Shown in pieces: positions 650-2,138 of a stretch of 5,832 nucleotides of DNA (position 1 is its first letter; every line of letters begins with the position of its first letter). The position numbers and the translations under genes were made by a program. This DNA is from Octopus sinensis (Eukaryota). The stretch covers positions 1 through 5,832 of the forward strand of contig NW_021829855.1 in the NCBI RefSeq assembly GCF_006345805.1, written 5' to 3'. The notes below the pieces were generated by a model. It had not been told where the DNA came from. It was given only the letters and a program-made list of their open reading frames with translations, and searched no databases.

Positions 650-774
650 TGACCCTCTAGAAATCCAGAATTTTATTTTGGAATTTATGGGAGCAACTGT
701 CTTCGAACATTCATATTGTCGTTGAATGCTCGAAATGAGGAATAGATAGACAGCCGACAACTGATGAAGGGTCG
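650..774 (+). ncRNA. Candidate non-circularly permuted (rearranged) hammerhead ribozyme, copy A
   Basis: Core motifs: AUA triplet 713-715, GAAA 732-735, CUGAUGA 761-767. Stem III UUCAU 710-714 / AUGAG 735-739 (includes the U16.1-A15.1 pair). Stem I UUGUCG 716-721 / CGACAA 755-760, directly 5' of CUGAUGA. Stem II GAGCA 691-695 / UGCUC 727-731 (G10.1-C11.1 directly before GAAA). Extra helices: GACCCU 651-656 / AGGGUC 768-773, hairpin 657-690, and CUGUCU 697-702 / AGACAG 748-753. Confidence 0.72.
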
Positions 775-884
775 TTCTCTGTGTTACCTGTCCTGTTTTC
801 CATTTTTTCTCTTGTTTGCGCATTTAACTCGTTTGTTATCGTACTTCATGTTGTTTACTGTTGGTGACATTCTGTACCCATGTG

Positions 885-948
885 CACACACACACACACA
901 CACACACACACACACACACACACACACATATATATATATATGTATATA
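885..948. repeat. Compound microsatellite (CA)22(TA)6 plus degenerate TA
   Basis: CA run 885-928, TA run 929-940, then tgtatata. Confidence 0.97.
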
Positions 949-950
949 CT

Positions 951-1270
951 GAAGATGCGTAGCTTAGTACTTAGGTTAACTGGCTCACATTCTTAAGGTC
1001 GTATGTTCAGTTTCCAGCGACATGTTGCGTCCTTGAGCAAGACACTTTACTTTACATTGTTCTTATACACTCACCTGGCAAAAACGAATAATACCTGTAT
1101 TTTAAATGGCCAGCCTTGGGATTTTCTTTGTCAGGTTCACTCTCCCTCAGAAAGACGTTAAAAGTACGCGTGTCTGTAGTTCTGAGTCACTTGCACTTTG
1201 ATTTAACGGACTAAGTGTTTAGCTGATAAGATCAACTGGAATGCTTGTCGTCCTCACCCACGGGATTCCA
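951..1270 (+). mobile_element. Diverged tRNA-derived SINE with a CORE-like central motif
   Basis: Degenerate A box TAGCTTAGTAC 960-970 and B box GTTCAGTTTCC 1005-1015, followed by gcgtccttgagcaagacactt 1027-1047, which resembles the CORE/MIR-type motif tgtgaccttgggcaagtyactt. It ends at an (ATCT)n tail. The body matches an octopus SINE as I recall it. Confidence 0.75.
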
Positions 1271-1275
1271 GTTCA

Positions 1276-1507
1276 TATCTATCTATCTATCTATCTATCT
1301 ATCTATCTATCTATCTATCTATCTATCTATCTATCTATCTATCTATCTATCTATCTGTCTGTCTGTCTGTCTGTCTGTCTGTCTGTCTGTCTGGTCTGTC
1401 TGTCTGTCTGTCTGTCTGTCTGTCTGTCTTCTGTCTGTCTGTCTGTCTGTCTGTCTGTCTGTCTATGTATGTATGTATGTATGTTTGTGTCTATCTATCT
1501 ATCATCT
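1276..1507. repeat. Compound tetranucleotide microsatellite (ATCT)20-(GTCT)~26-(ATGT)5-(ATCT)~4
   Basis: ATCT 1277-1356; GTCT 1357-1464 with an extra G at 1393 and a missing G at about 1430; ATGT 1465-1484; ATCT remnant to 1507. Confidence 0.97.
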
Positions 1508-1585
1508 CATTCATTAGTTTCGTCTATTTTTCAATACTTGACCTTCACCCCACTGATCCTTATTTCGTTGCCGAGTAAAGGATAG

Positions 1586-1714
1586 CACATTTACACCCAC
1601 ATACGCATACACACATATACACATATGTATATATATGCACAAGCATTAATGTATATATAACTATGCGTGTAAATGTAGGAGTCTATATATATATACAGAT
1701 AGGTAGATAGATAT
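1586..1714. repeat. Degenerate CA/TA/GATA low-complexity tract
   Basis: Interrupted ACAT, ACAC, TATA and GATA units. Confidence 0.7.
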
Positions 1715-1720
1715 GCAACC

Positions 1721-1949
1721 CTATAGCCCAGGGCTAATCAGAGCTTTGTGAGTGGATTTAGTAGATGTAAAGTCAAAGAAGCCTGCCGTTTAAACACCTG
1801 CATGTGAGTCTTTGTGCCTGCTTTTTTTCTCTACCACTCCGGAATTAGCGGTTCGGCAAAGGACACCGATAGAAGAAATACCAGATTCAAAGAATAAGTA
1901 GAAGTGCAAATTCGTTTAAATAAAACGTCTGTATTACATGGTTGCAGTC
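1721..1949 (+). mobile_element. Headless body and 3' part of an octopus-type SINE
   Basis: Blocks ctatagccc...ttgtgagtggattt.gtaga, ttagcggttcggcaaa.gacaccgataga, caaagaataagt and catgg..gcagtc occur in the order I recall for an abundant octopus SINE consensus. No tRNA head lies upstream on this strand. Confidence 0.65.
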
Positions 1950-2028
1950 TAGGGTGGAAGATGTCTTGCAAACAACTTGCACATGCAAGTGCTATCAGTC
2001 AAAAATCCCGCATACCGGAGGCCGGAAG

Positions 2029-2138
2029 CCAGCAAGTGTATGGGGTCATCAGGAGAGAATGCGCGCCGTTTCGGGGCCTACTTCTCGACGGCATCAATAT
2101 GCACCGCCCCTTCACTGATATGAGGCCCCGCTTGCTAG
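2029..2138 (-). ncRNA. Candidate non-circularly permuted hammerhead ribozyme, copy B, in the retrotransposon 3' UTR
   Basis: Minus-strand RNA reads UGCCGUC^GAGAAGUAGGCCCCGAAACGGCGCGCAUUCUCUCCUGAUGACCCC. GUC 2089-2087, GAAA 2072-2069, CUGAUGA 2052-2046. Stem III UGCCGU 2093-2088 / ACGGCG 2069-2064. Stem I GAGA 2086-2083 / UCUC 2056-2053. Stem II GGGGCCU 2129-2123 / AGGCCCC 2079-2073. Closing helix CUAGCAAG 2138-2131 / CUUGCUGG 2036-2029. Confidence 0.75.

Follow-up and report, generated by a model that had tools for sequence, protein, structure and literature searches.

Hammerhead ribozymes whose blocks follow the order S-G-C are a known non-circular permutation, named 'type-SGC' (HRIMA-1 and variants; Eckert, Friedrich, Weinberg and Weinberg, 2023, PMC10085705). 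In the parts of that article available, type-SGC hammerheads retain the full core, have a short link between the stem I 5' strand and the stem II 3' strand and a helix that connects stems I and II at their far ends, and cleave in vitro. They were found in metatranscriptomes, with none from the genomes of known organisms; their stem II directly follows CUGAnGA, in a block assumed to be unbreakable, and no known hammerhead is stated to have more than 1-2 nt inserted between A9 and G10.1. Penelope-like elements (PLEs) carry type I hammerheads (C-G-S) near their 3' end, often with a minimal stem III and with one inserted nucleotide tolerated between A9 and 10.1; they form partial tandems and non-coding tandem derivatives, and circular templates were proposed for them, reverse transcription round a circle giving more-than-unit copies (PMC4209133, sections available). 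The R2 element and other RLE-type retrotransposons, with a reverse transcriptase (RT) and a C-terminal endonuclease, process their transcript with a ribozyme of another class, HDV-like and located at the 5' end (PMC6765202, sections available). Naiad PLEs have (TA)n targets and tandem plus inverted copies; in the sections available of Craig et al. (2021, PMC8557442) they lack a canonical hammerhead, which was argued to be dispensable, and eight Naiad families, including the octopus Naiad_Ovul, are flagged 'HHR_half_core', with half cores 35-50 nt apart.

The window, that is, the whole stretch of 5,832 nt of Octopus sinensis DNA that was analysed (contig NW_021829855.1), contains two copies of a related motif without primary similarity to each other, in element A (+ strand, 650-774) and in element B (- strand, 2139 to 2029). 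Both hold all hammerhead core letters with the blocks in S-G-C order. The predicted stem II 5' strand is in both detached from CUGAnGA and placed upstream of block S, and the resulting break between A9 and G10.1 appears bridged by a tether helix that is usually accompanied by a hairpin. The block order, the full core, the short link between stems I and II and the helix joining their far ends are shared with type-SGC; in type-SGC, however, stem II stays attached to CUGAnGA, whereas here its 5' strand, like the interaction strand, precedes block S. The motif would work like a hammerhead, but it lacks the unbroken block C that defines type-SGC. Compared with PLE hammerheads, it is S-G-C rather than C-G-S, has a stem III of 3-7 bp, and bridges the break with helices; element A is accordingly not a type I hammerhead, the type used as a criterion for retrozymes and PLE pLTRs. 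Compared with R2, the motif lies in the 3' UTR. The earlier note on this DNA had proposed the common strand order and the added helix bridging A9 and G10.1, and both proposals were borne out by sequences from outside the window. Two points lie beyond it: the bridge hairpin would make a four-way junction, and the S-G-C order as such had already been published (PMC10085705, sections available).

In element A (+ strand), the tether 5' strand (650-656) pairs with 768-774, a helix of 7 bp read from the sequence that starts directly after A9. The junction hairpin between the tether and the stem II 5' strand (657-690), derived from the family alignment and the fold of the insert, is clean in family copies and partly decayed in the window copy. 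The stem II 5' strand GAGCA (691-695, G10.1 being 691) pairs with UGCUC (727-731), and the spacer strand CUGUCU (697-702) pairs with AGACAG (748-753) as the stem I/II interaction helix. Block S (710-721) consists of the stem III 5' strand, the NUH triplet AUA (713-715), after which cleavage is predicted 3' of A715 by analogy with hammerheads, and the stem I 5' strand. Stem III is formed by 710/711-714 with 735-738/739, and stem I by 716-721 with 755-760. Block G (727-739) comprises the stem II 3' strand, GAAA (732-735) and the stem III 3' strand, and the 3' part (748-774) comprises the interaction strand, the stem I 3' strand, CUGAUGA (761-767) and the tether 3' strand. Apart from the hairpin, which the earlier note had missed, all of these positions in A agree with those given earlier. 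In the window copy of A, a competing long hairpin is the minimum-energy nested fold; both window copies, A and B, are decayed.

In element B (- strand), the tether 5' strand (2139-2126) has a distal part (2139-2131) that pairs with 2036-2029 and a proximal part (2129-2126) that pairs with CCCC at 2045-2042; the tether 3' strand (2045-2029) holds a 5-nt bulge. Homologues L116 and L117 share the junction hairpin (2125-2110), which has one mismatch in the window copy. The stem II 5' strand (2110-2106) pairs with 2077-2073, and the interaction strand (2105-2099) with 2064-2058. Block S (2092-2081) contains the stem III 5' strand, GUC, with the cut predicted by the same analogy 3' of C2087 (H17), and the stem I 5' strand; stem III is 2092-2088 with 2069-2065, and stem I, with one mismatch in the window copy, is 2086-2081 with 2058-2053. 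Block G (2078-2065) holds the stem II 3' strand, GAAA (2072-2069) and the stem III 3' strand, and the 3' part (2064-2029) the interaction strand, the stem I 3' strand, CUGAUGA (2052-2046) and the tether. Pairing of the spacer with the linker, claimed earlier for both elements, was found at the same positions and recurs in outside sequences; its weakness in B (GGUGC 2105-2101 / GCAUU 2062-2058) is explained by decay of the window copy, as the helix has 7 bp in most family copies.

Two G-runs of B, proximal (2110-2106) and distal, can act as the stem II 5' strand. The detailed strand order proposed earlier held as an order; it omitted the hairpin, and the distal register that it thereby implied for B did not hold. 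In constrained folding, the proximal register was the more stable one in all 40 family-B matches that allow both registers (57 examined), and the distal run, less stable in each of these, was rejected as the stem II 5' strand. In homologue L116, the first G-run changes together with the bases after CUGAUGA and not with stem II. With the proximal register favoured, the junction layout of B is therefore the same as that of A. The distal run can pair in 48/57 family-B matches and the proximal run in 40/57, and one locus (L122) has lost the proximal pairing; B may have an alternative fold that uses the distal run.

A descriptor for the full strand order matched exactly A and B within the window, and in 1000 dinucleotide shuffles of the window it gave no match with the tether and, without it, one match in each of 3 shuffles, a comparison that is partly circular, since A and B were known when the descriptor was drawn up. 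No hammerhead family was among the 20 matches of an Rfam scan of the window (E ≤ 10), which gave only microsatellite-driven miRNA and snoRNA noise; with a rearranged strand order, a non-match is expected. The absence of primary similarity between A and B, and the ease with which short stems are found, would suit a chance resemblance of two unrelated repeats. Set against the shuffles with tether and against the outside sequences and partner-swap tests that follow, this reading is hardly credible.

Relatives of element B were sought outside the genome: an alignment of 51 of the 120 relatives listed was used, and the best 80 of 357 metagenome-contig loci were retrieved. The S-G-C core, defined solely by core letters and by stems I and III, was present in 53/80 HERO-like 3' UTRs (51/69 for loci having at least 150 nt of UTR), against none in 100 rounds of shuffles, 0/80 coding-region controls and none in antisense. 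These counts, together with the window shuffles, agree with the earlier expectation that the descriptor would exceed shuffled sequence. Adding the upstream stem II left 46/80 UTRs, and adding the tether left 42/80. The strict core was absent in 27/80 UTRs; 11 loci have less than 150 nt of UTR, and others are decayed or different. In viral contigs, the core occurred in none of 91 loci found with one narrow pattern. By eye, the 3' UTRs of L161, L162, L168 and L173 contain tRNA-like stretches that directly follow the ORF and, where the motif is present, precede it; they are a possible internal promoter.

Clustering at less than 72% identity gave 37 clusters, formed by A, B, a Naiad and two further families of this genome plus 32 from metagenome contigs. 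The upstream stem II scored at least 11 in 36/37 clusters. Stem II paired better with its own than with a swapped partner (14.6 vs 10.2), as did the tether (24.0 vs 14.7; n = 36) and the spacer-linker helix (16.2 vs 10.0; score at least 10 in 36/37 clusters), each with 0/10000 permutations; the clusters are related to each other, and permutation values overstate independence. Per-position counts for stem II and the tether, and counts for stems I and III, were selected by the descriptor. A canonical type-SGC stem II after CUGAnGA was rejected: it was found in 1/37 clusters, its first pair in 7/37, and there was no advantage of own (4.3) over swapped (3.9) partners. The differing stems of the two window copies had been offered as internal covariation support; two unrelated copies alone are insufficient for that, and the covariation is supplied by the 37 clusters. 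Within families, the core was not clearly more conserved than its flanks (16/379 vs 250/4166 for A and 7/341 vs 136/3371 for B); within-family covariation is uninformative, because dead copies decay neutrally.

A tether of at least 5 bp starting directly after A9 was found in 28/37 clusters, and the insert was predicted to fold as a single hairpin in 20 of those 28. By a strict test, an adjacent hairpin and tether were present in 21/37 clusters, and a clean four-way junction was missing in 16/37, including the window copy of B, the Naiad and a non-coding 780-nt family (family C). Wherever 11.1 pairs upstream (34 clusters), position 10.1 was G. In 4/37 clusters, no nearby upstream stem II with C11.1 was seen; by eye, G follows A9 in three of them and may supply 10.1. 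In a variant with a G after A9 and no G10.1 in the upstream strand, read by eye in L150, L151 (with L163 and L167) and L158, the break may be shifted by one base, to between 10.1 and 10.2.

Judged by these comparisons of sequence, the motif is real, conserved and widespread, and a conserved fold is very likely. The fold would be that of a type-SGC hammerhead with joined ends, reopened between A9 and G10.1. The tether would stack on the hairpin and stem II on the A9-G12 pair, so that a four-way junction would replace the missing backbone link.

The core was compared with the hammerhead consensus (PMC3088659, sections available). C3 U4 G5 A6 N7 G8 A9 and G12 A13 A14 were complete in A, B and 44 of the 46 matches of a relaxed search that left 15.1, 16.1 and 17 free (46/80 loci, relatives included), the other two having one change. 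The U16.1-A15.1 pair occurred in 46/46 relaxed loci, N7 took all four letters, and H17 was C in 18, U in 15, A in 13 and G in none. The core, the U16.1-A15.1 pair, an H17 that is not G, compensatory stems, G10.1-C11.1 and the stem I/II contact are all features expected of a hammerhead, and self-cleavage is likely on this pattern of letters and pairs. A non-catalytic folded tail recognised by the RT or endonuclease, its core a relic or look-alike and the strand after CUGAnGA locked in the tether, is quite improbable. It would explain why that strand so seldom forms stem II (1/37; first pair 7/37), why no copy ends at the cut site and why the motif lies in the 3' UTR, a position suited to template recognition. 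Nevertheless, the upstream strand gives a full stem II with G10.1-C11.1 retained, and the freedom of N7 and of H17 among C, U and A, never G (0/46), follows hammerhead chemistry. The same fold moreover accompanies unrelated RTs, RLE-type and Penelope-like, which is unlikely for a protein-specific binding site.

Element A (384..948, + strand) is a 5'-truncated copy of a non-coding, pyrimidine-rich tandem unit of about 700 nt that ends in (CA)n(TA)n. It matched a natural full unit at 80% over 384-870, and 3003 first-look candidates were counted in the genome. The unit is closed and has tandem and inverted partial copies; of 25 head loci, 14 had a direct partial copy no more than 130 nt upstream, and 5 had an inverted partner. 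This arrangement, with partial head-to-tail tandems and inverted pairs on microsatellites, is Penelope/retrozyme-like. That A might derive from a distant HERO-like 3' UTR, as was suggested earlier, was discarded: no HERO-like ORF was linked to A in 54 A loci, where one unlinked opposite-strand fragment was seen, and the unit is closed. In the loci read, no coding partner contiguous with the unit was found; GIY-YIG ORFs upstream in L019 and L385 were set aside as separate insertions, not contiguous with the units.

Element B (1959..2421, - strand) is the 5'-truncated 3' end of a non-LTR retrotransposon with RT and C-terminal endonuclease (RLE-type, HERO-like), and matched the long copy L090 at 86%. 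The C-terminal remnant of its ORF (2162..2419, - strand; 85 aa open) has protein relatives. Elements of the B family encode a single ORF of about 1,100 aa with an RVT_1 match and R2 proteins as best PDB hits, and in L090 a CCHC knuckle and C-terminal PD-(D/E)xK-like endonuclease motifs were read by eye. The clade is presumably HERO. The ORF end led into a B-type UTR in 15 of the 16 loci read in this genome, some of them damaged. The sixteenth (L095) belongs to a second RLE family with a longer 3' UTR, in which the motif, decayed, lies about 330 nt further down; it is intact in L034 (about 1060-1190, + strand). Family C, a young non-coding 780-nt family (L082, L384-L398; e.g., L389 1-1690, + strand), carries the same motif, with 97% identical copies; 1532 first-look candidates were counted, and its concatemers reach two or more units. 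Non-coding tandem derivatives of PLEs (PMC4209133, sections available) are comparable to A and family C.

Of 12 Naiad loci of this genome, 7 contain the strict core, at the 3' end of the family, which by eye is near-identical to the published Naiad_Obim and Naiad_Ovul ends (PMC8557442, supplement in part); in one locus (L205), a PLE-type RT end lies upstream of the motif. Among published Naiads, inspection by eye of 14 of the 62 CUGAUGA places in one part of the supplement showed the full rearranged motif in six entries, at the 3' ends of Naiad_Obim, of Naiad_Ovul, of three coral-type Naiads and of one Movir Naiad. The rearranged motif is a testable answer to why Naiads seemed hammerhead-free, and its use by different retroelement families, as had been proposed from A and B, is supported outside the window. 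Two Naiad entries among the nematode families of the same supplement have, by eye, a hammerhead of ordinary order with a long stem II insert.

Copy ends bear on what the motif might do. The HERO-like family (L263-L292 in this genome) has no fixed 5' end, and its 5'-UTR copies are seamlessly preceded by a partial 3' end, which resembles the Penelope pseudo-LTR and differs from R2. A query with the 5' UTR only gave 40 matches, of which 30 loci were fetched and reduced to 18 independent insertions, sets of 12 and 2 loci sharing flanks. Of these 18, 15 cross the junction of 3' end and 5' UTR, 11 of them running past the cut site; the other 3 break off within the 5' UTR, and not one terminates at the junction. 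The larger set (L276, L278-L282, L284-L288 and L290, many on contig C18) is one insertion with a common flank, amplified at least 12 times, and mapped loci related to it have the same internal deletions. Young 780-nt copies have a common 3' end on (TA)n, and 7/15 loci pass a second cut site. Copies cross the cut site once or twice and retain 115-250 nt downstream of it. In L041 (1159-1704), the B 3' end is repeated as three tandem units of about 160 nt, two of which break off shortly after GAAA, where the sequence returns to the ORF end.

Truncation at the cut site was not observed: of 29 B copies, none ends in the 50 nt that precede it (nearest -53), 0/18 insertions from the 5'-UTR query end there, and the starts of upstream partials of A lie at unit positions 415-618, without an edge at 489. 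This lack of a pile-up is compatible with ligated circles, and equally with no cleavage. In RNA from three raw-read runs of a related organism and three contig runs, reads were mostly less than 95% alike, with mate directions about equal, and no read ends clustered at either cut site; these reads weigh neither for nor against cleavage.

Seamless more-than-unit copies are as expected from circular or concatemeric templates, and they follow the pattern proposed for reverse transcription round a circle (PMC4209133, sections available). Concatemers can also arise from RT template jumping, as in R2, and tandem master copies or such jumps could be an alternative source. Cleavage would then only trim elements from longer or tandem read-through transcripts, and long copies would come from linear concatemers or RT jumps. 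The sequence evidence for catalysis applies equally to trimming, tandem master copies exist, and known retrotransposon ribozymes free elements from co-transcripts (PMC6765202, sections available); trimming as the whole role is nonetheless fairly unlikely. Retention of 115-250 nt past a cut site that copies cross argues that cut linear RNA is not the usual template. The junction is identical, apart from single substitutions, in 22/30 loci where printed, and 3' ends reach 0-8 nt into it (45 ends), a short run that suggests priming inside a continuous template.

A conserved retroelement motif that would self-cleave and yield unit-length RNA circles as RT templates is the best explanation, and a reasonably probable one; that circularisation is the job of the motif is given slightly better than an even chance. 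Cleavage after H17 in a transcript through two motifs would free one unit. Four helices besides stem I, namely the tether, stem II, the spacer-linker helix and stem III, would hold its two ends together, an arrangement that would favour ligation. Multimeric transcripts might thus be cut and re-joined to unit-length circles, and RT, after priming 115-250 nt past the cut site, would travel round the circle. The chances are evenly balanced for a broader proposal, that this undescribed wiring, pseudoknotted and open within the catalytic core, is an active cleave-and-ligate ribozyme in RLE LINEs, Naiads and non-coding retrozyme-like units of animals, supplying the ribozyme of Naiads and having HERO-like LINEs replicate via circles.

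Within the literature searched, outside whose scope lie subscription journals and Repbase reports, the strand order was not found, and it may be new. Neither a split block C nor a hammerhead in HERO-like UTRs was described in titles and abstracts, and 'type-SGC' occurred in PMC10085705 alone. The published six-permutation scheme assumes that CUGAnGA and stem II are inseparable, and the motif breaks this assumption. It also moves a non-circular permutation from metatranscriptome RNAs into the retroelements of animal genomes, with thousands of candidate genomic copies in many divergent families that escape Rfam and the descriptors now in use. For an R2-related LINE group, the motif suggests an intermediate that is circular or concatemeric. 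If active, a ribozyme with clamped ends could serve RNA circularisation.

Pfam gave nothing significant for four ORFs of the window, including 5438-5650. By eye, a frameshifted remnant at about 5100-5832 (+ strand) resembles another non-LTR RT end, presumably RTE-like. A long, MITE-like inverted repeat occupies 3048-3495, with arms of 93 nt and 33 nt that are 72-79% complementary. Dispersed SINE-like repeats at 4315-4576, 3697-3738, 1092-1263 and 1721-1792 recur in many loci, with up to 75 matches.
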